Assembly: GCA_040218735.1 (NCBI GenBank)
Contig: JAVJQW010000050.1
Location: 320,001 to 384,000, forward strand
Reading direction: 5' to 3'
Length of the DNA stretch: 64,000 nucleotides
Source of the DNA: Deltaproteobacteria bacterium
GTDB lineage: Bacteria > Myxococcota > Kuafuiibacteriia > Kuafuiibacteriales > Kuafuiibacteriaceae
Positions 25,395 to 37,275 of the stretch are shown piece after piece. Position numbers and translations under genes: made by a program. Numbering within the stretch: position 1 is the stretch's first letter; each line of letters begins with the position of its first letter. A model generated the notes under the pieces. That model saw only the letters and a list, made by a program, of their open reading frames with translations. It made no database searches and was not told the origin of the DNA.

Positions 25395-26258
25395 TCAATT
25401 GGTCTTCGGACGGACGCCGAGCTGGACGAGCCCCTCGTTGAGGCGGCCGGTGCGAAAGCCTTCGAGATCCAGCGTCACGAAGCCAAATCCCGCCGCTTGG
25501 GCGTCCGCGACGATCCGCGCGCGATGTCGGACGACCCCCTCGATCTCCGCCTCGCCGACCTCGATCCGCACCATATCGTCGTTGTCGCGGACCAGGCGGG
25601 CGCGGACGTCGAAGAAGCCCAGCTCCCGCAGGCACACCTCGACCCGCTCCACCCGGCCCAGACGCTCCTCGGTCACCGCCACGCCGTACGGGAGGCGGCT
25701 CGAGAGGCACGCGAGCTGCGGCTTGTCCCAAGTCGGCAGGCCGAGCCGCTTCGACAGCGCGCGGATCTCCGCCTTCGACAGGCCCACTTCGGCGAGCGGG
25801 TGCCGGACGTCGTGCTCCGCGGCCGCCCGGTGCCCCGGGCGAAAGTCCGCGAGGTCGTCCGTGTTGAAGCCGTCGACGACGACGGCGCCCTCGAACGTCT
25901 CGGCCGCGAGCTGGGTCGTGTCGAACAGCTCCGTCTTGCAGTAGTAGCAGCGCGACGTCTCGTTCTTCACGTAGTCCGGACGGTCGAGCTCGTGCGTCGT
26001 GACCACGCGGTGCTCGATCCCGATCGCGACGGCGAGCGCCTTCGCGTCCTCCAGCTCGACCTGCATCAACGACGGCGAGCGCGCCGTCAGCGCTATCGCC
26101 CGCTCACCCAGCGCATCGCAGGCGACCCGTGCGAGGAACGCGGAGTCCACACCGCCCGAGTAGGCGACGACCACGCGACCGTACGAGCGGAGCAGCTCGA
26201 CGAGCGCGCGGTGTTTGGCCTCGACCGCGTCCGAAAGCGTGGCGACGTCCACCGACAT
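25395..26258 (-). CDS. larE: ATP-dependent sulfur transferase LarE family
   Basis: VAYSGGVDS PP-loop; RCYYCK, DFRPG, KAEIR and WDKPQLACLSSRLPYG motifs. Confidence 0.93.
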   Translation of the reverse strand: MSVDVATLSDAVEAKHRALVELLRSYGRVVVAYSGGVDSAFLARVACDALGERAIALTARSPSLMQVELEDAKALAVAIGIEHRVVTTHELDRPDYVKNETSRCYYCKTELFDTTQLAAETFEGAVVVDGFNTDDLADFRPGHRAAAEHDVRHPLAEVGLSKAEIRALSKRLGLPTWDKPQLACLSSRLPYGVAVTEERLGRVERVEVCLRELGFFDVRARLVRDNDDMVRIEVGEAEIEGVVRHRARIVADAQAAGFGFVTLDLEGFRTGRLNEGLVQLGVRPKTN

Positions 26259-26270
26259 CGTGCGTTTCGT

Positions 26271-27326
26271 CTACACGATGCGGTGCGCGCTGGCACCCGC
26301 GGATTCACGCACGATCGGCCGCAGCATCGGCCCCGCGATCGCGCGAATCGCACGCGCGGCGTGTTGGTAGGTCGCGTCGAGCCCCGAGGCGGCCGTCGCG
26401 TCGGCGAGCGCTCCGGCCACCGCCTTCAGGTCCCGCGGGCGGTCCTGAGGCCGCGTCGCGAACAGCGGCGTGAGCACCTCCCCGAGGCGCCCGAGGTTCG
26501 AGTGCGGCGCGAGGAGACGGCGCGCGAGGACGCCGACCGCGTACGCGTCCGCGGCCAGCGAGGGCAACAACCCGTAGCGACGCTCGGGCGCGAGGAACGG
26601 ATCGAGCAGCGGTTCCGAGAGGTCGACGTCGGGCCCCGGCGACCACAACCGAACCGAGCCATCGAGCCCGAGGTGCAGCCGGCGGGGCTCGATGGCCCCG
26701 TGGGGACCGCGGCGGGCGTGGTGCTGCGCCACCCCCTCCGCGAGGTGACAGGCCAGGACCGCGGACACCTCCGCCGGCACCGTGAGGAGCCCGGCTTCGA
26801 GCGCGTCGAAGAGCGCGGTGGCGGGGATCTGAGGCCCTTCGGATTCCACGACCGCGATACGGCCATCGAAGAGCTCCAGCCCGTCATCGACGCTCCGCGG
26901 CTCGCGCCGGACGGTGATCCAACGCTCGTCCGCGAGGCGGAACGCCCGCACCGTCCTATCGGGCGTCGCGTGCTCGTGAGCGACGCGTGCGCCGTCGACC
27001 TGCGCACCGACCAGGCTCGGCCAATCGGGGTCCGCCAGGCTGAACGACAAACGAAGATCGTTGAGGCGCAACACCTCGTCCGGCGCCACGGTGATCGGCG
27101 CGCGGACGCGTTCGTCTTCTCGCGCGAGCCCGGCGCGCCCACGCCCGAGGTCCGTCACGAGGATGCGCCCGCGGCGCACCAGGACATGCACGTGGCGCTC
27201 GGCGAGTCGGTCGTCGTCGATGGTGAGGTCGGCGCGCGGTCCCCGCCCGAGGAAGAGGTCCGGCCCCGGGCGCTCGTGAACCTCCACGCGCCCGCGGCGC
27301 GCCACGACGAACCGCACCGAGGCCAT
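26271..27326 (-). CDS. FHA domain plus degenerate kinase-like domain (pseudokinase)
   Basis: FHA-like LGRG...DDRLAERH...VTDLG; kinase-like HGAIEPRRLHL...FLAPE...ADAYAVG without HRD/DFG. Start ATG 27326 inferred. Confidence 0.8.
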   Translation of the reverse strand: MASVRFVVARRGRVEVHERPGPDLFLGRGPRADLTIDDDRLAERHVHVLVRRGRILVTDLGRGRAGLAREDERVRAPITVAPDEVLRLNDLRLSFSLADPDWPSLVGAQVDGARVAHEHATPDRTVRAFRLADERWITVRREPRSVDDGLELFDGRIAVVESEGPQIPATALFDALEAGLLTVPAEVSAVLACHLAEGVAQHHARRGPHGAIEPRRLHLGLDGSVRLWSPGPDVDLSEPLLDPFLAPERRYGLLPSLAADAYAVGVLARRLLAPHSNLGRLGEVLTPLFATRPQDRPRDLKAVAGALADATAASGLDATYQHAARAIRAIAGPMLRPIVRESAGASAHRIV

Positions 27327-27398
27327 GCCCGGACGATGGTACTCGCGACGCATGGTGTGCGGCCAGGCCTGCAAGCGCAGCGCCGGTCAGGCCGCCTC

Positions 27399-28625
27399 TC
27401 AGGGCCAGGGCTCGACTTCGAGGCTGTCCGCGACGAGCCGGCGGAGCGTGCCGTCCTCCGTCAACACGTGCGTCGCACCCTGGTTCTGCGCCATCGCAGC
27501 GAAGAGCCACGGAGAACGCTCCGTCGCCACGAGGGGAGCCTGATCGACCCCCGCGATGGGCTCCGGAGCCAGCACGAGATCGAAGGAAGAGAGGTCATGC
27601 CCCTCGGCGTCGGCCGCCTTGGCGACCGCCAGCACCCGCTTCGCCCCCGCGCGCAGGACACGCGCACGGGACTCCGCAGCGAGCTCTTCGCCGCCGACCA
27701 CGAAGACCGGGCCGCCGATGATGCGGCGTTGGTTCTGCGCGTACAGGTCACCGACCGCCATGTAGGCGAGCGCCTGGCCGTCCGCGACGAGGCGGACGAT
27801 CGCGCCGGGCTCGAGCCCACCGTCGACGAGCTGGCGCTCGTGGACGTCGAGCACGATCGGCACGCGCCACGGCGTCCCCGCGGGGAGTCGACCCAGGTCC
27901 TGTACGGAGCGAACCTCGGCGCGGCGCATGAAACCCGCGAGGGGCGAGTACAGGCCGCCTGCGAAGCACCGCAGGTCCTCGCGGACCTGGCGCTCCTCGA
28001 TCTCGATCGTGCGCGACTCCGCGAGGGCGTCGAGGCGCTCGGCTTCGGGGGCGTCGATCCGGCGGGGCGCCAACGCACCGGACACCGGGCGCAGCGGGCG
28101 CGCCGCCTCCTTGCCTTCCATCGTTCGGAGCGAGAGGTCGGGCAGCTGCGTCTTCGCCTCCCCGAGGCGACGCTCCACGAAGCGCTTCGCCTCCGCGTCG
28201 TACTGGTACGCCGCGAGGTCCGCGTAGACGCCCTCGCGGACGGACACGACCACGTACACGACGCCCGGCGTGAGCTCGATGCCCTCCTGCACGGCCATCG
28301 CGCGATCCTCCGGCGAGAAGTACGCGCCGGCGTCGCAGTGGGAGTGATAGATGATGCGCTCGTCGAGGCCGGCCTCGCTCGCCTCGTCGAGGACACGCAT
28401 CCGCTCCAGGTCGTTCATGCGGAACGCGTCGCGCCCCGTGCGCGGGAACGCCTCCGGATCCCGTGCGTGATACTTGTCCTGCACGTTCTCCATCGGGACG
28501 ACGCGCGTCAGCTTCGGCCCGTTGCCGAGCACGACGCCGCACGCCTCGACGGGATAGTCGCGGACCGCGTGCGCCTTCAGCGCCTCGACGATCGGATCCG
28601 TGAGCTCGAGCCCGAAGACCTTCAC
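27399..28625 (-). CDS. Mov34/JAB (Mec-like) metalloprotease fused to a degenerate ATP-sulfurylase-like domain
   Basis: N-terminal YPVEACG...YHSH...FSPED (JAMM). C-terminal DL..FAGGLYSPLAGFM...RLPAGTPWRVPIVLDV...GGPV...AMAQNQGATHV. GTGA overlap with cysM. Confidence 0.88.
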   Translation of the reverse strand: MKVFGLELTDPIVEALKAHAVRDYPVEACGVVLGNGPKLTRVVPMENVQDKYHARDPEAFPRTGRDAFRMNDLERMRVLDEASEAGLDERIIYHSHCDAGAYFSPEDRAMAVQEGIELTPGVVYVVVSVREGVYADLAAYQYDAEAKRFVERRLGEAKTQLPDLSLRTMEGKEAARPLRPVSGALAPRRIDAPEAERLDALAESRTIEIEERQVREDLRCFAGGLYSPLAGFMRRAEVRSVQDLGRLPAGTPWRVPIVLDVHERQLVDGGLEPGAIVRLVADGQALAYMAVGDLYAQNQRRIIGGPVFVVGGEELAAESRARVLRAGAKRVLAVAKAADAEGHDLSSFDLVLAPEPIAGVDQAPLVATERSPWLFAAMAQNQGATHVLTEDGTLRRLVADSLEVEPWP

Positions 28626-29545
28626 GACTCGCGGACCTCCACGTATCGCGACGCGTGGTCGGGCAGGACCGCCACCACGACCGGCTTCTTGCCGGCGGCG
28701 AGCGCCTCCTCGGCGATCGTCTTCGCGGCGTGAACCACGGCGCCCGCCGAGTGCCCGACGAGCAGGCCTTCGTCGCGGACGAGCGCCTCGGCGCTGTCCC
28801 AGCCCGCGTCCGTCGGGCAGAAGAAGGTCCGCGTCAGCACGGAGCGATCGTAGATCCCCGGGCGGATCGATGTCTCGATGTACTTGAGGCCTTCGAGCCC
28901 GTGGAACTCGTCGTCCGGCTCCACGCCGATGACCTCGATGTCGTCCCGAAAGGCGCGAAGCCGACGCCCCGTGCCCATGACGGTGCCGCTCGTCCCGATG
29001 CCCGCGACGAAGTGCGTGATGCGATCGCCGAGGGCCTCGATGATCTCCTCCGCCGTCCCGTCGTGGTGCGCACGCCAGTTCGCCTCGTTGTTGTACTGGT
29101 TCGTGTAGAAGTAGCGCCCGGGCTGCTCCTCCACGATCTTGCGCACGAGCTCGATCGCGCCGTCGGAGCCGTCCATCGGATCGCTGTAGATGATCTTCGC
29201 GCCGAACGTGCTCAGCATGCTCTTGCGCGCCGACGACACGTTCTCGGGCATCACCAGCGTGACTTCGTACCCGCGCGCCGCACCGTACAGCGCGAGCGCC
29301 ACGCCCGTGTTGCCGCTCGTGGAGTCGATGATCGACATCCCGGGCCGCAGCTCACCGGACTTCTCTGCGGCCTGGATCAGGTTCAACGCCGGGCGGTCCT
29401 TCACGCTGCCGCCCGGGTTCAAGAACTCGAGCTTCGCCCAAACCTCGGCGCCTTCGGGCTCGACCGAACGGAGCCGGGCCATCGGCGTACGACCGACGGC
29501 CTCGGCGATCGACCCGACGGTCCGGGCCCGCGATGGTGCGCTCAC
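28622..29545 (-). CDS. cysM: PLP-dependent cysteine synthase (CysM-type)
   Basis: KLEFLNPGGSVKDR (PLP Lys), STSGNTG, NQYNN, GIGTSGT and EGLK motifs; sits between the sulfur carrier and the JAB gene. Confidence 0.9.
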   Translation of the reverse strand: MSAPSRARTVGSIAEAVGRTPMARLRSVEPEGAEVWAKLEFLNPGGSVKDRPALNLIQAAEKSGELRPGMSIIDSTSGNTGVALALYGAARGYEVTLVMPENVSSARKSMLSTFGAKIIYSDPMDGSDGAIELVRKIVEEQPGRYFYTNQYNNEANWRAHHDGTAEEIIEALGDRITHFVAGIGTSGTVMGTGRRLRAFRDDIEVIGVEPDDEFHGLEGLKYIETSIRPGIYDRSVLTRTFFCPTDAGWDSAEALVRDEGLLVGHSAGAVVHAAKTIAEEALAAGKKPVVVAVLPDHASRYVEVRES

Positions 29546-29820
29546 CTGCCGCCCGCGATCGCCGGAACGATGCTGACCTCCGTGCCGTCCTCGACCTTGG
29601 TGTCGACGTTGTCGAGGAACCGGATGTCCTCGTCCTTGTAGTAGACGTTCACGAAGCGCTTGGGCGCGCCGTTCTCGTCGCAGATGCGCTCGCCGATGCC
29701 GGGGTGCGCCGCGGTCAGGCTCGCGAGGACGGCCTTGATCGTCTCGCCCTGCACTTCGACCTTGTCATGCCCCTCCGTGAACTTCCTGAGGGGCGTCGGA
29801 ATTCGAACCGTGATTGCCAT
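29542..29820 (-). CDS. Ubiquitin-like MoaD/ThiS/CysO sulfur carrier with GG-R C-terminus
   Basis: MAITVRIPTPLRKFT...RFVNVY..DEDIRFL...VSIVPAIAGGR*. ATG 29820. Confidence 0.93.
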   Translation of the reverse strand: MAITVRIPTPLRKFTEGHDKVEVQGETIKAVLASLTAAHPGIGERICDENGAPKRFVNVYYKDEDIRFLDNVDTKVEDGTEVSIVPAIAGGR

Positions 29821-30661
29821 GATGTTCTCGAGAACCTCCAAATTTTCGATCGACTGAGAAGTAGCGGTCTCCCGCGTCCACGACGATGCTGATGACGCGT
29901 GCGCCCTCGCTCGCCTCGTCCCGCGCTACACGTGCTGCAGCAGCGGAACCCATCCCGACCAGGATCCCTTCCTTGCGCGCGAGCTCGATGCGCGTTTCGT
30001 AGGCCTCGGGATCGAGCACACACACCACGCGGGTCGCGCCCTTGGGCGCCGACGACCCGCGCACCACGCCGTCCTGCACCGAGACCTCCGCCTGCTCGCA
30101 CCGCACCGTTCCGACGGTCTCCACCGGCCGGCCCGCGGCGACGAACGCGTCCGCGACACCGAACAGCAGCTCACCACCGTTGAGCGGCGAGACGAGCACG
30201 GTCTTTTCGCCGTCGTCGTCGATCATCTCGACGAGCTCCGCACCGAGCGAGGATGAAAACGCCGCGCGCGCGAGCTCGGGCTTCTTCGGCGACACCAGGA
30301 GCGTCCCTTCGATCGTCGACGCGACCGCGTGGGTCTTCTCCAGCTCACCGGGCACCCGCACGACCTCGACCGCGTACCGCCCGAGCAGATCCAGGTGCTC
30401 CGGCAACGTCTTGTCCGGGACCACGACCGTGAGCTTCTTCTTCAACGGCGCAGCCGCCGCCGCAAACGCGAGCGCAGGACTCCCGCTCGCCGCGATGACG
30501 ACACGATCGTCGTCGCACGCGGCCAAAAGCGGACCGGCGATCCGATCGTACGCGCTACCGGACGGGAGCATCATCTCGACCTTCGCGTACAGTGCTGTTC
30601 CCGGCGCGAAACGTTGAAGACGCACGAGCGGCGTCCCGAAGCTGGTCGAGATGAATGACAC
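29765..30661 (-). CDS. Cysteine-synthase-like protein lacking the PLP lysine (pseudoenzyme)
   Basis: GTPLVRL...YAKVEMMLPSGSAYDR...LARKEGILVG...DAGDRYFS fits the CysK fold, with Tyr at the Lys position. Confidence 0.85.
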   Translation of the reverse strand: MSFISTSFGTPLVRLQRFAPGTALYAKVEMMLPSGSAYDRIAGPLLAACDDDRVVIAASGSPALAFAAAAAPLKKKLTVVVPDKTLPEHLDLLGRYAVEVVRVPGELEKTHAVASTIEGTLLVSPKKPELARAAFSSSLGAELVEMIDDDGEKTVLVSPLNGGELLFGVADAFVAAGRPVETVGTVRCEQAEVSVQDGVVRGSSAPKGATRVVCVLDPEAYETRIELARKEGILVGMGSAAAARVARDEASEGARVISIVVDAGDRYFSVDRKFGGSREHHGNHGSNSDAPQEVHGGA

Positions 30662-30696: not shown

Positions 30697-33600
30697 TCAA
30701 CCGTCGGAGAGGCCCGCGAGCCTCCGGAGCCGCTCGGTCTTCTCGGAGAGCTCCCGCGACACCCGCTCGAGCTGCCGCTCCCGGTCGTCGATCGTGGTCT
30801 CCAGCTCGGTGATCCTCCGCTCCGCCTGGACCTGCGCCTGCTCCGAGGCCTGAAGCTGCGCCCGCAGCCGGTGCGACTCGGATTCCATCGCCGTAGCCTC
30901 CGCCGTCAGCCGCGCAAGCTGCTGGTCGCGGGCCTCGACGTCCGTCCGCAGCCGGTCCACGTCACCCCGCTGCTCCAGCTTCCCGCGCAGGATGTCGCTG
31001 TCCGAGCGCGCCTGCGTGAGCTGCCGCCGCACGAACTCCAGGCCCTCGCGGCCCTGGCGGATCTCCGAGAGCTTCCGCCCGACCTCCGCGCGCGCCTCGT
31101 CCAGCTCACGCGCCGTCCGCTCCGCGAGCGCCTTGAGGCGTTTGACCTCGCCGTCGCGGTCCGCGAGGGCGCGCTCCAGGTTCTGGACCCGACCACGCAA
31201 CGCGTCCGAATTCGACGACGCCCCGGCCTCCAGCTCCACGATGCGCTCACGCGCCGCGGTGAGCGCGGTCTCCAAGTTCGACCGCGACGTGCTGCCGAGC
31301 TCCTGCTCGAGCTGCGAGAGCCGCGCCTCCACCTTGCCCTTCGCCGCCTCGACCTGCTGCCGCTGGTCCTCGACCGTGCGCAGGCGCCCCTCGACCTCTT
31401 CGAGCTTGGCCTGCCAACGCGTCTCCTTCTGCTGCACTTCGAGCTCGAGGTGACGCCGCTGGCGCTCGGCGTGCTCCGCGCGGCCCTCCGCTTCGAGGGA
31501 TCGCTGCTCGAGCGTCTTGCGCTTCTCCTCCAGCCGCTGCGCCCGCGCCTCGGACTCCTTCGAAAACGCCTCCGCGTGCCGCGCGCGATCCGCACTGCGC
31601 TCCGACTCCGCGCGCATCCGCTCGACGTCTGCCTCGGCCTTCGACAGCTTCGACTCCGCGTTGGACCGACGCTCCTCCAGCTGCGCGATCGTGAGCTTCG
31701 TTTCGTCGAGCTCCTTCGCGACGCGCGTCGCTTCCGCCTCGGCGCGCTCTGCGCGTATCCGCTGCTCCTCGGCCAACGCCGGGTTCGAGCCCGCGAGCGC
31801 GCGGTTCGCCTCCGCGAGGCGCGACTCCGTCTCTTCGCGCGCCTGCTGCTCGGCCTGCGCGGCGTCCCAGCCTTCCTTCGCACGCGCCGACTGCTCCGCG
31901 ACCTGATCGCGCAGCGCCGTGATCTCCGACTTCAGCCCGTCGCGTTCGCCGGCCGTCTGCGCGAGCCGCGCGACGCGTTCCTGCCCCGCCTTCCGCTCGG
32001 CGGCGAGGTCGTCGGTGAGCCCCTGAATCTTGGCGTGCAAGGCGTCTTGCTCTTCCTTCGACGCCTCCACCAGAGCACGCAGCGTGTCGCGCTCACCGGT
32101 GGTCTCCGCGAACCGCGAGGCCTCGACCTCCTGCACGCTCACGAGATCCTCGATGCGCGCCTCCATCACGGTGCGCGCCGCCTCCGCGTTCGCGACGTCC
32201 GCACGCAGCCCCTCCAGCTCCATCTGCTGGTGTTCGAGGAGCTGCTGCGCGCCCTTCGCCTCGTCGAGCGCCTCACTGACCTTCGACAGCTCCGCCTGCA
32301 GGCGATCGCGCTCCGCGCTCGCGGCGTCGAGTCGCGACACCGCCGCCGACAGCTCGCGGTCCGCGTCCTCGGCGAGGCGCTTGGCCTCGTCGGCGTCGGC
32401 GGTCGCGGTCATCAGCGCCTCGTCCTTCGACGCGAGCTCCGCCTCCAACCGCTCTCGGTTGTTCTGCTCCGACGCGAGCGCCGCCTGCACCGAAGTCTTC
32501 GTCTCCTCGAGGTTCCGCTCCTCGGTCTGGAGCCGCTGCACCTCGGCGCGCAACGCCGCGACCTCGGAGTCGAGCCGCGAACGCTCCTGCGCCGCGATCG
32601 ATCGCTCCGCTCGCGCTTCGTCGCGCGCCTCGATCGCCTCGGACAGCTCCGCCTCGATCTTCGTGCGCTCGTCCGTGAGGCTGTGGATCCGCGCTTCGAG
32701 CGCCGCCCGCTCCTCCTGCGCCGCGACGCGCTCATCGGAGAGCACCTGCACGCGCTCCTCCAGCGGACGCAGCTGCGACTCGATCGTCCCGAGCTCCCGC
32801 AGGCGCTCCTCCAGCGCGCGCACTTCCCCTTCGAGCTGTTCGACGCGCTCCGAAGACTTGTCGCGCTGAGCCTCCAGCTCGCGGATGTGCGCGTCACGAT
32901 CTTCGAGGCGACGCGTCAGCAGCTCGTCCGCCGCCTTGCGCGACGCTTCGACCTGCCCGATTCGCTCCTCGAGCGCCGTGACCCGCTCCTGGGCCTCGTC
33001 CGCTTCCGCGCGCGCCGCCTCCAGCGTTTGCTCCGCCTCGTCCGCCCGGCGCCGCTCCGCGGTGAACCGCTCCTCGCCCTCGTGCTTCGCGGCGTCGCGC
33101 TCGGCTTCGACCGCGGCGATACGCTCGTCCTGCGACTCGATCCGGCGACGGGCCTCTTCGGCCTCGGCGCGCGCGGTGGCCAACGCTTCCGCGGCTTCGT
33201 CGCGCTCCGACCGCGCCGACGCGAGCTCGGCGTCCAACCCAGTCCGCGCCTCGGCGACCTCGTCGCGCTCCGACTGCGCGGAGGCGAGGGCCTCTTCGAG
33301 CTGACCGCGACTCGCCACGAGCTCGTCGCGCTCCAGGCGCACCGCCGCGAGCTCCACCTCGAGCTGGCCGCGCGTCTCGTTCGCCGCCGAAAGATCGGCG
33401 TCGAGCGCCTCGGCCTTCGACTTCAGCGCGGTGTGCTCCGCCTCGACCGACTGCTGCTCTTCGGCCAAGGCCTGCAGGAGCCCCTCCAGCGTGGAGCGCT
33501 CCGCGATCGCATCGGCGCGCGCACGTCCGAGCGATTCGATCTGCTCTGCGAGCGCCGTCTTGGCGTCCTCGTTCTCCGCCTCCCGCTGCGCCGCGTCGGC

Positions 33601-36600
33601 CTCGCGCTTCGACAGCTCAGCGCGCAAGCGCTCCACCTCGTCGAAGTGGGCACCCGCCGCCGCCTCCAGCCGCGCGATGTGGGCGGTGAGCCGCTGTCGC
33701 TCCTCCTCCGCCGCGTCGGCCTGACGCGGATCCGTCGTGTTCTGCGCGACGACGAGCGCGGAGGCCAGCGCCTCGATCTCGTCTTCCGCGTCCACACGCA
33801 TCCGCTCGGCGCGCGCGTGGGTGTCCTGCAGCTGAATGCGCGTGAGCGCCAGCGCGTCCTCCAGCGCCTCGACCCGCAGCGACGCCTCGAGCCGCGCCTG
33901 GTGCGCGACGAGGCGCGAACGCCCCTGCACGTCGCGCAGCTCGGCGCGGAGCGCTTCGGCCTCTTCGATCGCACGCCGACGCAGACCATCGATGCGCCGC
34001 AACTCGACTTGCATCGCGAGCCGCTCCCGATCGTCGGTCTCGGCGTAACGCGCTGCGAGGGCCTCGGCGCGCACCGCCTCGAGCTGACTCCGGAGCCGCT
34101 GCGCGGCCTCCTCGGCCTCCATGCGCAGCTGGCGCTCCTCGAACGCCCGCGCCACGTGCGGGCCCGGCCCGATCGCGAGCGCGGACTCCAGCTGCTCGAC
34201 GCGCTGATGCGCCTCGAACCGGTCCGCCTTGAGGCGCTCGATCGTGCGCGCGTCCGACTCGACCCGCGAGCGCAGGATGTCGACCTCGTCGTCGTCCGCG
34301 AGCGCCGGCTGCGGGAGCATCGACGGCGGCGTCTCCGGAGGGATCTTCGCCTGCGCCTCGCGCAGCGCACCCTCCAACGTGAGGACGTCGTTCTCGCGAG
34401 CTTCGAGCTCGCGCAGCAATGCGGTCTGCTCGAACTCCAGGCGGTTCACACGATCGGCGAGTGTCTTCGCCTCCATCACCGCGTGGACCCGCGCCGCTTC
34501 GATGCTCTTCTCGCTCCGCGACGCGTCCTGACGCTGGCGCTCCAGCGTGCCCTTCTCACCCTCGAGCTGTTCGGCGCGCGCGTTCGACTCCGCGAGCGCC
34601 TTCTCGAGATCCGTGAGGCGCATCGACAGCTTCGCCGCCTCTTCGAGCGTACGCCCGAGCGCGGTCTCGGCGGTCTCCCGCGCGGCGACCGCCTCGCGCA
34701 GCGCCTCCGGATCCGCCTGCGGCGTGGTCTGCTCCAGCACGCGCTGCCGACGCAGCGACGCCAGCTCCGTGCGGTACAACGTCCGCTCCGCTTCGGCGCG
34801 CGTGAGCGACCAGACCGCCTCCGCGGCCTCCCCCTCCGCGCGCACCTTCTCGGCGAGCGCGGTGCCCATCTGGTCGAGGTGATCCTTCGCGTCGCGCTCC
34901 AGCGCCTCGTTGCGCTCGCGCCACATCCGCGCCTCGCGGACGCCCTCGCTGGCGGCCATCGTCGCCTCGCGGAGCAGCTCCTCCAGCTCGTCCTTCGCCC
35001 GCACCGCGCGGTCGCGCTCGGCGGCCGTCTGATCCAGGCGCCGCTCCAGCGCGGCGAGTTTGTCGTCGAGCGCCTGCGCGCGCGACGTCTCGGCCGAGCC
35101 CGACGACTCCGCCCGCGACATCCGCGAACGCAACGCCTCGAGCTCACCCTTCAGCTTCTTGTTCTCCTCCACCGCGTGGAGGTGACGGTTGTTCGCGGCC
35201 TCCGCGGCGTCGCGTGCGTCCTCGACCTCGCGCTCCAGTCGATCGAGCGCGGCCTGCCCGCCCTCCAGCGACAACGCGAGCTGCTGCGCGCGCTCCTCGG
35301 AAGCGATCGCCCGTTGCGCCATCCCGGCCGCGGCGTCGCGCTCGTCGAGGAGCATCTGCGAGGTCGCCGCGAGCGCGTCGCGCTCGTTGCGCAGCGCCTT
35401 CACCCGCCCGCGGAGCTGCTCGACCTCCTGCATCAGGTGCCCCGCGGCGAGCTCCACCGCCTTCTTGTCGCGGTCGCGCATCCGCGCGTCGCCGCTCGCG
35501 ACCTGCATCTGCGCGGCCTGGTCGAGGAGCTCACGTTCGAGGGCTTCGATCCGGCCCGCGCGCTGGTGGGCCTCGTGGCGGAGCCGGTTCACCTCATCGG
35601 CGAGCCCGCGCGTGACCTGCGCGCTCTGTTCGTACGCACGCTCGGCCTGCTCCGCGCGCTCCTCGGCGGCGGCGCGCCGCGCGGCGACGTGCTCCTCTTC
35701 GTTCTCGATCTCCGAGAGCTTCTGCTCCGCGCGCTCGCGGCGGTGGTCGGAGTCGGAGAGCGCCTCCGCGAGGAAGGCGATGCGCCCTTCGAGCCGGTCC
35801 TGCTCGGCGGCGTGCGCCATCGTCACGTCGTCGAGGCGGCGCGTGAGGTATTCGATCCGCGACGCGGCGTCGCGGTAGTCGGTGCCCAGCGCGTGGCGAA
35901 CCTCGAGCTGACCCGACAGCTCCTGCTCGAGCTCCGCGATGCGCTGCTCCTGCAGGCTCGCGGTGCGCTCCAGGTGGTGGATGCGGCGCTCCGCCTCCGA
36001 AAGATCCTCCGAAGGCTGCGGGATCTCGCTCGACTGATCGACGATCGTCCGCTGCAGCTCGCTGATCCGCGTCGCGTAGCGATGGGCCTCTTCGACGTGG
36101 ACGTCGACCTTCGTGCGCAGGTCCTGGATGACCTCTTCGCGCTCGACCTCCGCGTCGCGGAACGCTTCGAGCTCCGCCTCCGCCTTCTCGCGCGCGGCCT
36201 TCTCGCGTTCGAGCGCGGCGTTGAGGCCGTCGACCCGAGTCCCCAGCTCCTGCCGCGCCGACTCGAGGCGTGACACCAGCGCCCGGGCGTTGTCCTCGGT
36301 GGGGCGCTCCAACACCGTCGGGGAGATGATCTCCTGCGGCGCCGGGAGCGACGATTGCGCGCGCGCCTCGGCGAGCCGCGCGTGGAACGCCTCGCGGATG
36401 CGCGGGAGGCGGTTCTTGATCTCTTCGAGCGAAGCGTCGCGCTGACCGATCAGCTTGCGCGCGCTCGCGAGCGCGCCGAGCAAGCGCTTGGTGTCGGCCG
36501 CGGACTTCGCCTGCGCGGCCTCCTGCAGCGCCTCGAAGTCGAGGAACGGCAGCTCGACGAGGGTGCGATCCTGAGGCTCCGGCGCCCCCGCGCCGCCGAT

Positions 36601-37275
36601 CGCGAGCACGTGGCTGGGGCGCGCGACGGGGCCCGAGAGCGACGGATCGAGGCTGACGTCGAGGCTCGCGGGGTCCTGGCCCTCGCGGTGGATCGTTACG
36701 CCGATGAACGGGGACTGCACGTAGAAGCGCGCGTCAGGGAACGTGTCCTTCACCGCGCTCTCGAGGCGATGCGGCTCCAGCTCCGGGTACTCACCTTCGT
36801 CGGCGGCGAGGTGGGTGAGCGAGCGGCCCGTCGCGGCGAACCCGACGAGCATGAAGCCGTCCGAGGACAATACGCGGCGCACCTCGTCGAGGAAGCGCGC
36901 GTTGGCGGCGAGCTCACGCGAGAGGTCGGCGACGAGGACGGCGTCGAAGCTGTCGTCCGGGAAGTCGACGCGGCCGCGATCCATCGAGAACAGCTCGACC
37001 GCGTGCGAGCCGAAGCGCGAGCGATCGAACGCCCCCGCGTCGGGCGCCGTACCGATCACACGTTGCGCGCCGGCGTCGAGGAGCCGGAGCAACGATCGGG
37101 GATCGTCGGTACCGACCTCGAGCACGCGGCGCCCTTCGAGCGCGGCTTCGACGAGGAGGTAACGCGGCAAAAACTCCCCGAGCCCGAGCGACGCACGGGC
37201 GCGTGGAGCGCGCTGCGCGCCCTGAATGATGGCGGTGAGGTCGGCCGGTTGGTCGCTATGCGAGCTGGTCGTCAC
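30697..37275 (-). CDS. Giant protein: N-terminal methyltransferase-like domain plus ~1900-aa coiled coil
   Basis: LEGRRVLEVG...DFPDDSFDAV...FLDEVRRVLSSDG (class I MTase-like), followed by continuous E/A/R/L heptad sequence. Confidence 0.9.
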   Translation of the reverse strand: MTTSSHSDQPADLTAIIQGAQRAPRARASLGLGEFLPRYLLVEAALEGRRVLEVGTDDPRSLLRLLDAGAQRVIGTAPDAGAFDRSRFGSHAVELFSMDRGRVDFPDDSFDAVLVADLSRELAANARFLDEVRRVLSSDGFMLVGFAATGRSLTHLAADEGEYPELEPHRLESAVKDTFPDARFYVQSPFIGVTIHREGQDPASLDVSLDPSLSGPVARPSHVLAIGGAGAPEPQDRTLVELPFLDFEALQEAAQAKSAADTKRLLGALASARKLIGQRDASLEEIKNRLPRIREAFHARLAEARAQSSLPAPQEIISPTVLERPTEDNARALVSRLESARQELGTRVDGLNAALEREKAAREKAEAELEAFRDAEVEREEVIQDLRTKVDVHVEEAHRYATRISELQRTIVDQSSEIPQPSEDLSEAERRIHHLERTASLQEQRIAELEQELSGQLEVRHALGTDYRDAASRIEYLTRRLDDVTMAHAAEQDRLEGRIAFLAEALSDSDHRRERAEQKLSEIENEEEHVAARRAAAEERAEQAERAYEQSAQVTRGLADEVNRLRHEAHQRAGRIEALERELLDQAAQMQVASGDARMRDRDKKAVELAAGHLMQEVEQLRGRVKALRNERDALAATSQMLLDERDAAAGMAQRAIASEERAQQLALSLEGGQAALDRLEREVEDARDAAEAANNRHLHAVEENKKLKGELEALRSRMSRAESSGSAETSRAQALDDKLAALERRLDQTAAERDRAVRAKDELEELLREATMAASEGVREARMWRERNEALERDAKDHLDQMGTALAEKVRAEGEAAEAVWSLTRAEAERTLYRTELASLRRQRVLEQTTPQADPEALREAVAARETAETALGRTLEEAAKLSMRLTDLEKALAESNARAEQLEGEKGTLERQRQDASRSEKSIEAARVHAVMEAKTLADRVNRLEFEQTALLRELEARENDVLTLEGALREAQAKIPPETPPSMLPQPALADDDEVDILRSRVESDARTIERLKADRFEAHQRVEQLESALAIGPGPHVARAFEERQLRMEAEEAAQRLRSQLEAVRAEALAARYAETDDRERLAMQVELRRIDGLRRRAIEEAEALRAELRDVQGRSRLVAHQARLEASLRVEALEDALALTRIQLQDTHARAERMRVDAEDEIEALASALVVAQNTTDPRQADAAEEERQRLTAHIARLEAAAGAHFDEVERLRAELSKREADAAQREAENEDAKTALAEQIESLGRARADAIAERSTLEGLLQALAEEQQSVEAEHTALKSKAEALDADLSAANETRGQLEVELAAVRLERDELVASRGQLEEALASAQSERDEVAEARTGLDAELASARSERDEAAEALATARAEAEEARRRIESQDERIAAVEAERDAAKHEGEERFTAERRRADEAEQTLEAARAEADEAQERVTALEERIGQVEASRKAADELLTRRLEDRDAHIRELEAQRDKSSERVEQLEGEVRALEERLRELGTIESQLRPLEERVQVLSDERVAAQEERAALEARIHSLTDERTKIEAELSEAIEARDEARAERSIAAQERSRLDSEVAALRAEVQRLQTEERNLEETKTSVQAALASEQNNRERLEAELASKDEALMTATADADEAKRLAEDADRELSAAVSRLDAASAERDRLQAELSKVSEALDEAKGAQQLLEHQQMELEGLRADVANAEAARTVMEARIEDLVSVQEVEASRFAETTGERDTLRALVEASKEEQDALHAKIQGLTDDLAAERKAGQERVARLAQTAGERDGLKSEITALRDQVAEQSARAKEGWDAAQAEQQAREETESRLAEANRALAGSNPALAEEQRIRAERAEAEATRVAKELDETKLTIAQLEERRSNAESKLSKAEADVERMRAESERSADRARHAEAFSKESEARAQRLEEKRKTLEQRSLEAEGRAEHAERQRRHLELEVQQKETRWQAKLEEVEGRLRTVEDQRQQVEAAKGKVEARLSQLEQELGSTSRSNLETALTAARERIVELEAGASSNSDALRGRVQNLERALADRDGEVKRLKALAERTARELDEARAEVGRKLSEIRQGREGLEFVRRQLTQARSDSDILRGKLEQRGDVDRLRTDVEARDQQLARLTAEATAMESESHRLRAQLQASEQAQVQAERRITELETTIDDRERQLERVSRELSEKTERLRRLAGLSDG

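Follow-up and report, generated by a model that had tools for sequence, protein, structure and literature searches.

An open reading frame (ORF) of 408 amino acids on the minus strand of the window (the 64,000-nucleotide stretch of Deltaproteobacteria bacterium contig JAVJQW010000050.1 analysed here, with a G+C content of ~70 %) is predicted to encode a JAMM protease of the Prok-JAB type fused to a shortened, catalytically dead ATP sulfurylase (Sat) module. The initial annotation of this DNA, made from its letters alone, had placed the frame at the coordinates given in Table 1 and had read the product as a JAB protease joined to a miniaturised dead Sat; the frame is as claimed, and the reading was borne out by Pfam, HMMER, hhalign, two AlphaFold2 (AF2) models, and two Foldseek searches. 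We lean, with a little more belief than doubt, towards the view that the protein is a JAMM hydrolase of the CysO/CysM cysteine pathway carrying a non-catalytic structural or regulatory Sat-like module. New here is the combination, not the parts: dead Sat-like domains are on record, both Pfam domains are already recorded on these proteins, and the searchable literature (subscription papers and preprint supplements lie outside it) yielded no paper describing a JAB-Sat-like fusion, as the initial annotation had supposed.

The same architecture recurs in other genomes. A homologue search returned 50 matches, 46 of which carry both PF14464 and PF14306 in precomputed Pfam annotations; 48 of the 50 are 282-459 aa long and cover 63-100 % of the query at 37-98 % identity, and the short matches P0059, P0063, and P0070 may be fragments or split genes. 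Where the relatives bear a name at all, it is Mov34/MPN/PAD-1, Rpn8/Rpn11, or CysO-cysteine hydrolase, with the JGI name given as '[CysO sulfur-carrier protein]-S-L-cysteine hydrolase'. A genome scan identified 15 loci, all in metagenome-assembled genomes, with the full fusion at eight of them (L001-L006, L010, L011) and JAB only at the other seven (L007-L009, L012-L015). Twelve of the 15 loci are assigned to Myxococcota, and the remaining three are labelled 'bacterium' (L002), 'uncultured delta proteobacterium' (L004), and 'Proteobacteria bacterium' (L013). Four of the eight fusion loci lie on contigs of 1.8-7.3 Mb. An assembly chimera or a lost stop codon, which the initial annotation had kept in mind, is ruled out by the 46 matches and eight genome loci that share this architecture. 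To judge by these sequences, the fusion is a real, conserved family that is confined to uncultured Myxococcota.

The N-terminal half matches Prok-JAB (PF14464) over residues 11-129 (E 1.8e-16; 60.5 bits against a cut-off of 25). Its JAMM site residues E27, H94, H96, S104, and D107 are invariant in all 29 rows of an alignment of relatives, and the regular expression H.H.{7}S..D was found in 48 of 48 relatives. Foldseek matches to JAMM1 (5lda, with a TM score by target length [TMt] of 0.80), 2kks (0.71), and Rpn11 chains point to the MPN fold. This half appears to have all the features of a carrier-specific JAMM hydrolase, within a CysO/CysM operon; the genomic setting expected of a carrier hydrolase is present, in that the window holds a ThiS-like carrier ending in GG and a CysM-type pyridoxal 5'-phosphate (PLP) enzyme. 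The linker behind the protease is conserved as well, with P162 and R167 invariant, six of its 31 columns at or above 90 %, and a mean identity of 53 %.

The C-terminal module consists of a PUA-like domain and a remnant of the Sat catalytic domain. PUA_2 (PF14306) was matched over residues 179-301 (E 4.5e-20; 72.3 bits against a cut-off of 27), and PDB sequence matches of this domain comprised 8a8d, 3cr8, 1v47, and 1i2d. The NCBIfam Sat models reach residues 180-301 only (NF003166, 67 bits against 387; TIGR00339, 55 against 323), and Pfam gave no match in the fusion protein to the ATP-sulfurylase catalytic domain PF01747 at E up to 1, and none to APS_kinase. Searched against the PDB, a profile of the 29-row alignment matched the Methanothermococcus Sat 8a8d at E 3.9e-21 and the two-domain adenosine 5'-phosphosulfate (APS) kinase of Thiobacillus denitrificans, 3cr8, at E 2e-20. 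The latter was the only PDB sequence whose alignment continued unbroken into the catalytic-domain remnant; it covers profile positions 182-345, from the PUA-like domain as far as the first catalytic-domain strand. For 8a8d, two more collinear segments below threshold were found at the ETR...GW..VVAFQTRN and N.GCTH blocks.

We also compared the module by hhalign with a canonical set of 11 Sat proteins carrying FQTRNP, HxxH, and GRD.AG and with a wider set of 16 Sat-family proteins of 350-739 aa, five of which have all three motifs and several of which are motif-less (eight were Pfam-checked). Residues 178-408 aligned with the canonical set at 99.5 % (E 6.8e-23, 153 columns), ending directly before QTRNP, and with the wider set at 99.9 % (E 4.5e-31, 210 columns), as far as the N.G.TH block. 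The remnant taken on its own (residues 302-408) reached 94.7 % with the wider set (E 5.7e-8, 88 columns) and 42 % with the canonical set (E 2.6e-4, 31 columns); the best of 40 column-shuffled controls for the remnant came to 1.7 % and E 0.03. A forced global alignment of the remnant with canonical Sat misplaced its second half. The first half of the remnant is, from these alignments, securely Sat-derived.

Every block equivalence proposed in the initial annotation was recovered in these comparisons. RPVSGAL was paired by hhalign with the HGG.L of the Sat N-terminus, the SPL.GF and W..P..L blocks fell within the Sat PUA-like domain in the PDB sequence matches, and GGPV...AAESRA...GAKRVLA corresponded to GGP...ETR...GWKTVVG both in the single stretch with 3cr8 and in hhalign against canonical Sat. 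The pairing of NQGATH with NYGCTH is less strongly supported: because hhalign against canonical Sat alone is weak, it rests on a sub-threshold collinear HMMER segment, on intermediates (hhalign with motif-less Sat-like proteins in the template), on the MAFFT alignment, and on structure.

In the structural comparison, the full-length AF2 model (mean predicted local distance difference test [pLDDT] 93.4) was searched against the PDB with Foldseek. The matches listed at ranks 1-28 were all Sat, 3'-phosphoadenosine 5'-phosphosulfate (PAPS) synthase, or Sat-like chains, with 283-343 alignment columns and TM scores by query length (TMq) of 0.40-0.47, and JAMM1 5lda stood at rank 30. The Sat/PUA_2 structural match that the initial annotation had called for was thus found, with 3cr8 first among the matches listed (E 3.7e-14). 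A PUA-like domain of ~125 residues would alone give a TMq of at most ~0.3 for a 408-residue query, so the remnant must presumably superpose too. When a separate model of residues 296-408 (pLDDT 90.5) was used, the matches listed at ranks 1-13 were again all Sat or Sat-like chains, followed by pantothenate synthetase, phosphopantetheine adenylyltransferase, and nicotinamide mononucleotide adenylyltransferase. The E-values of this search were weak (5e-3 to 5e-2 for ranks 1-13, none at or below 0.001), and it would be informative by its ranking alone, with Sat first and other HUP nucleotidyltransferases after. The ESM Atlas's own model aligned residues 175-408 to a Sat cluster at TM 0.51. For the whole chain, a predicted TM score (pTM) of 0.91 suggests a fixed packing of one half against the other.

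The substrate-binding motifs of Sat are QTRNP, HxxH, and GRDHAG, and their loss, asserted in the initial annotation, was confirmed. In the MAFFT and hhalign alignments, ~24 columns with the HPGV-containing insert are deleted from the PUA-like domain, QTRNP and HRAH are replaced by a loop, and the catalytic domain has become shorter in its middle part. The chain ends ~20 residues past the TH of NQGATH, and GRDHAG, which would lie beyond this end, is missing together with ~100 further residues. What is left of the ~210-aa catalytic domain is ~107 aa, including the first strand and the N.GATH helix-strand. Regular expressions found QTRN in none of the 48 relatives, GRDHAG in none, and an HxxH-type motif in one (an HRGH, taken for chance), while N.G.TH is kept in 47 of the 48, the exception being a truncated entry of 282 aa. 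The module is predicted to be a Sat fold without the catalytic apparatus, which cannot serve as a sulfurylase.

Conservation, expressed as mean identity to the window protein, is 61 % in JAB, 40 % in the PUA-like domain, and 43 % in the remnant. The least conserved part is the old active-site stretch (residues 334-371), with 28 % identity and two of 38 columns at or above 90 %, and the block at residues 372-390 stands at 68 %. Across the module, 32 of 231 columns reach 90 % or more; W373, Q380, N381, G383, A384, and T385 are strongly conserved in the 29-row alignment, and R320/A321 of the E.R motif are invariant. This pattern points to purifying selection on the module.

From these features we propose a division of labour in which the N-terminal JAB domain would be the sole catalytic part. 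It would trim the residue after the Gly-Gly of CysO (Arg here), leaving the carrier open to adenylation and thiocarboxylation, and it would hydrolyse the CysO-cysteine adduct made by CysM, with cysteine freed and CysO recycled. The C-terminal 230 residues are of Sat descent and have lost catalysis, and they would no longer bind or activate sulfate. As a rigidly attached module, they might hold the protease in place, tune its activity, or serve in assembly, whether of the protein with itself or with partners from the pathway. Both substrates of JAB are inferred, as is the function of the Sat-like module. Our preference for a structural or regulatory module is based on analogy with the APS-kinase Sat-like domain (SLD), on linker conservation, and on a high pTM, and the idea of an oligomerisation or regulatory module, also raised in the initial annotation, would agree with that precedent.

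The initial annotation had further suggested an allosteric sensor of sulfate, APS, or ATP that gates carrier maturation. On this reading the dead Sat module would still bind one of these ligands or PAPS, and sulfur supply would thereby control, allosterically, whether CysO is matured or recycled. Dead enzyme domains do act as allosteric sites in the sulfate pathway, as the APS-kinase-like domain of fungal Sat does, and here the block at residues 372-390 is as conserved as the protease itself, R320/A321 do not vary, and the module is fixed to JAB at high model confidence. We nevertheless disfavour the sensor and regard it as improbable, given that the canonical motifs are gone from the relatives (with the single HRGH as the only HxxH-type case), that the stretch replacing QTRNP/HxxH is the most variable, and that the nucleotide-binding fold has lost its C-terminal half. 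In the accessible text of a recent preprint, moreover, the SLD of Entamoeba histolytica loses its substrate-binding capacity where the substrate-binding loop is missing (10.64898/2026.04.02.716029).

The relatives of the module outside the fusion family bear on its origin. A phmmer search of 1.84 billion representatives, for which residues 170-408 were the query, yielded 573 matches at E <=0.001, 19 of them at <=1e-10. When the best 150 of the 573 were classified by regular expression, 98 were PUA-only proteins or fragments, 19 were Sat-like with N.G.TH and without QTRN or GRDHAG, 16 were JAB fusions, 11 had one of QTRN and GRDHAG, and six had both. Among the relatives are motif-less stand-alone proteins of ~240 aa (P0069, P0108, P0120) and a motif-less protein of 483 aa that joins a short Sat-like module to an APS kinase (P0125). 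A search with P0108 showed that the stand-alone form is present in cultured Paracoccus genomes (P0108, P0195-P0234; 225-280 aa), where it is named 'sulfate adenylyltransferase', 'transcription antiterminator BlgG' (several), or hypothetical. We also noted fusions of pyruvate kinase (barrel domain) to Sat of ~670-750 aa (P0101, P0129, P0159, P0184), some of which lack Sat motifs by regular expression; the ESM Atlas cluster of this architecture has 383 members, with Chloroflexota as the commonest phylum.

In a quick IQ-TREE analysis of 41 rows and 259 columns, with low support at depth (47) and long branches for P0174, P0125, and P0144, the fusion modules formed one clade (Shimodaira-Hasegawa-like approximate likelihood ratio test [SH-aLRT] 99). 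The Paracoccus-type proteins formed a separate clade (SH-aLRT 100) nested (100) with the canonical-motif Sat proteins P0199, P0203, and P0207, and P0144, a motif-less Sat-like protein with an APS kinase, was a weakly supported sister of the fusions (SH-aLRT 47). A single origin of all mini-Sat forms was rejected, as the Paracoccus-type proteins group with canonical Sat and away from the fusions. Because the two clades stand apart, truncation at the same point seems to have occurred at least twice. Such independent truncation suggests a stable folding unit, and, together with the lower conservation of the module (40-43 % against 61 % for JAB), it would suit a decaying relic of a former JAB-Sat protein or of a neighbouring Sat gene, kept for JAB folding alone. 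We consider a relic very unlikely: the module is full-length in 47 of 48 relatives, even at 37 % identity, it retains invariant blocks and a conserved linker, and the JAB-only relatives in the same phylum (L007-L009, L012-L015) indicate that JAB folds without it.

The coordinates of the fusion, its domains, and the surrounding genes are collected in Table 1. The TGA stop of cysM and the GTG start of the fusion overlap as GTGA, with GGAGG just upstream, and cysO and cysM overlap by four bases, so that cysM has four-base overlaps at both ends. The fusion gene is, on this arrangement, predicted to be translationally coupled to cysM and cysO. The cysM-like protein scored 312 bits against the NCBIfam cysM model TIGR01138, which is under the cut-off of 394. 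No Sat, APS kinase, sulfite reductase, or E1 was detected by Pfam among 36 other ORFs of the window, and tblastn with two ThiF proteins of related loci found nothing across the 64 kb. An anti-phage system of the ubiquitin-like protein/JAB type was considered and rejected, since none of the six operon proteins matches PADLOC and the window has neither E1 nor E2.

Table 1. Features of the fusion ORF and of the neighbouring genes; positions are those of the window.
Feature	Position	Strand	Remarks
Fusion ORF	27399..28625	-	408 aa, GTG start
JAMM/MPN+ (Prok-JAB) domain, residues 1-146	28188..28625	-	Pfam PF14464
Conserved linker, residues 147-177	28095..28187	-	LPDL..R.MEG block
PUA-like domain of ATP sulfurylase (PUA_2), residues 178-301	27723..28094	-	without HPGV-containing insert
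Sat catalytic (HUP/Rossmann-like) domain remnant, residues 302-408	27402..27722	-	
2192-aa protein	30697..37275	-	
CysK/M-like ORF	29765..30661	-	first gene of the row
cysO-like ThiS/MoaD sulfur-carrier protein	29542..29841	-	Pfam ThiS E 6.2e-13; C-terminus ...AIAGG-R
cysM-like cysteine synthase, PLP enzyme	28622..29545	-	lysine intact; Pfam PALP E 5.6e-63
FHA-domain protein	26271..27374	-	367 aa; Pfam
LarE-type PP-loop sulfur transferase	25395..26258	-	TIGR00268, 307 bits against a cut-off of 150

Several neighbours have features of their own. The CysK/M paralogue at the head of the row has no Schiff-base lysine (PSGSAYDR against PGGSVKDR in CysM), its asparagine and glycine loops are altered, and its lid segment is deleted; the same changes were found by alignment in L001:4469-5410 and L004:4597-5511. 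Its 3' end overlaps the start of cysO by 56-77 nt, and it is probably a second pseudo-enzyme of the operon. The FHA protein has no Pfam match in its C-terminal two thirds and groups with FHA plus Ser/Thr kinase clusters in an ESM Atlas feature search (score 0.93, 212 of 256 features); it may be a pseudokinase, which we offer as a lead only. In the LarE-type protein, a C..C pair and a third Cys (CYYCK, ACLSSR) resemble the three-cysteine [4Fe-4S] type as set out in the accessible portion of PMC11796402, and no LarA, LarB, or LarC is among the Pfam matches of the window. The 2192-aa protein has a methyltransferase domain at its N-terminus (Methyltransf_11, E 6e-7) and otherwise consists mostly of coiled-coil-like repeats in which E, A, R, and L abound. 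In L001, L004, L005, L010, and L011, the synteny upstream of the operon takes in its N-terminus.

We next counted neighbours over nine fusion loci, namely the window and the eight loci from the genome scan. A cysM gene adjoins the fusion in four of the nine (window, L001, L002, L004), as does cysO (window, L001, L003, L004), and ThiF or ThiF-TusA is encoded upstream in four (L001, L003, L004, L005); at least one of the three adjoins it in six of the nine. The L002 contig begins inside cysM, with nothing readable upstream. An FHA protein gene adjoins the fusion in five loci (window, L002, L004, L005, L006), and a LarE-like gene lies downstream in eight of the nine, all but L010. Behind its GG, CysO carries R in the window, A in L001, F in L003, and no further residue in L004; a GG-WR end was also seen.

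This gene order raises the possibility of an adaptor, in which the module would tether the protease to CysM, ThiF-TusA, the LarE-like transferase, or a genuine Sat or APS kinase, giving one complex for carrier loading, use, and recycling. The coupling of the fusion gene to cysM would fit such a role, as would the LarE-like gene downstream, the ThiF or ThiF-TusA gene upstream, and the JAB-only locus L012, which has an APS kinase gene in the module's place; Sat-like domains also touch the kinase domains of neighbouring protomers, according to the accessible text of the preprint cited above (10.64898/2026.04.02.716029). However, the outer flanks of the operon (the genes for the 2192-aa protein and for an 885-aa protein) are syntenic as well, so the linkage may partly reflect relatedness and not function, and L010 has none of these neighbours. 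We regard the adaptor as doubtful.

Further observations were made at the scanned loci. An E1 gene of the ThiF or ThiF-TusA type stands beside cysO in nine of the 15 loci (L001, L003, L004, L005, L007, L008, L012-L014), and the ThiF-TusA match is split across two reading frames in L004 and L001. Directly after cysO or ThiF-TusA, three loci have short ORFs (L003:7203-7949, L005:7586-7954, L012:5493-5876) that resemble the N-terminus of ThiF/E1 alone, in that they start in the R[YF][AS]RQ manner and contain an AGVG stretch; of the three, only that of L012 gives a Pfam match, at profile positions 1-53. These may be degenerate E1 fragments. At L012 the APS kinase (L012:6781-8137) follows a short JAB and carries a long basic tail rich in K, A, and P, with a LarE-like gene after it. 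Myxococcota also encode ~750-aa proteins in which Prok-JAB is joined to a Cys/Met-metabolism PLP enzyme (PF01053), found in ESM Atlas clusters of 79 and 66 members; fusions of a carrier protease to a sulfur amino-acid enzyme therefore seem to be a theme of the phylum.

Several points weigh against the CysO/CysM hydrolase with a structural or regulatory module. No E1/ThiF gene was found anywhere in the window, and L006, L010, and L011 have no cysO, cysM, or thiF within the fetched flanks, so that the CysO assignment rests on the other six loci. The Sat derivation of the second half of the remnant appears to depend on intermediates and structure and is weak against canonical Sat alone. The functional link between module and protease is putative. 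The module is also much shorter than the SLD of APS kinases (that of E. histolytica ends at the I294-G302 linker in the accessible preprint text), and the analogy may fail on this account. Finally, the conserved block of W373, Q380, N381, G383, A384, and T385 could mark a binding site and not a structural core. The module might also be a working regulatory device whose W373/Q380-T385 face reads a sulfur metabolite or a partner and switches the protease, coupling CysO release and recycling to the state of sulfate activation. As partner, one may think of ThiF-TusA, of the LarE-like transferase, or of a true Sat or APS kinase. We rate such a device as rather unlikely; if it is real, then, together with the lysine-less CysK/M and the likely FHA-pseudokinase, the pathway would be controlled largely by pseudo-enzymes.

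Whichever role the module has, dead Sat-like domains were so far known only on APS kinases, and a JAMM protease is a new fusion partner. A further-trimmed module on a protease of ubiquitin-like proteins shows that such a pseudo-enzyme can be put to new use beyond sulfate activation. With two domains, a small size, and a confident model, the fusion lends itself to studies of the control that a module of this kind has over a catalytic partner to which it is unrelated, and it marks a Myxococcota-specific form of the CysO/CysM cysteine pathway.

Among known systems, hydrolases of the Mec (Rv1334)/HcyD type share with the fusion the same Prok-JAB domain with an intact metal site, a ThiS-like GG carrier, and a CysM-type synthase in the operon. 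Mec is the Mycobacterium tuberculosis counterpart in the CysO/CysM protein-thiocarboxylate cysteine pathway, and HcyD and HcyS are the JAMM hydrolase and the carrier in Wolinella. Known hydrolases of this type are generally single-domain proteins of ~150 aa. In PMC11361707 the genes mec, cysO, cysM, and moeZ are named, and CysM is described as using O-phosphoserine together with the carrier CysO. JAB, a carrier, an E1, and a cysteine synthase form a recurrent neighbourhood in PMC1779556, the Wolinella-type version of which includes ATP sulfurylase. In their accessible portions, neither of these two sources describes a Sat-like extension of a Mec/HcyD-type hydrolase.

The SLD of the APS kinases from T. 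denitrificans (3cr8) and E. histolytica is likewise a motif-less Sat fold on an active enzyme of sulfur metabolism, and 3cr8, the best structural match of the fusion, also lacks the HPGV insert. As far as the accessible text of the preprint goes (10.64898/2026.04.02.716029), SLDs are without activity or substrate binding; that of T. denitrificans is inactive and has been proposed to stabilise the hexamer, and that of E. histolytica raises kinase activity through interdomain contacts. The two arrangements differ in that the SLD is N-terminal to an APS kinase, whereas our module is C-terminal to a JAMM protease. They also differ in extent: the fusion module has ~230 aa and ends ~20 residues past N.G.TH, whereas the E. 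histolytica SLD continues to ~residue 294 in the same text. Canonical Sat (PF14306 plus PF01747) is homologous over fusion residues 178-333, with the conserved blocks in the same order, but the fusion lacks a PF01747 match, QTRNP, HxxH, GRDHAG, ~100 catalytic-domain residues, and the PUA insert. The stand-alone mini-Sat of Paracoccus and relatives is truncated in the same manner, in that it too lacks QTRNP and GRDHAG and has PUA_2 and half a catalytic domain ending soon after N.GATH; it is not fused to JAB, and its miniaturisation looks independent.

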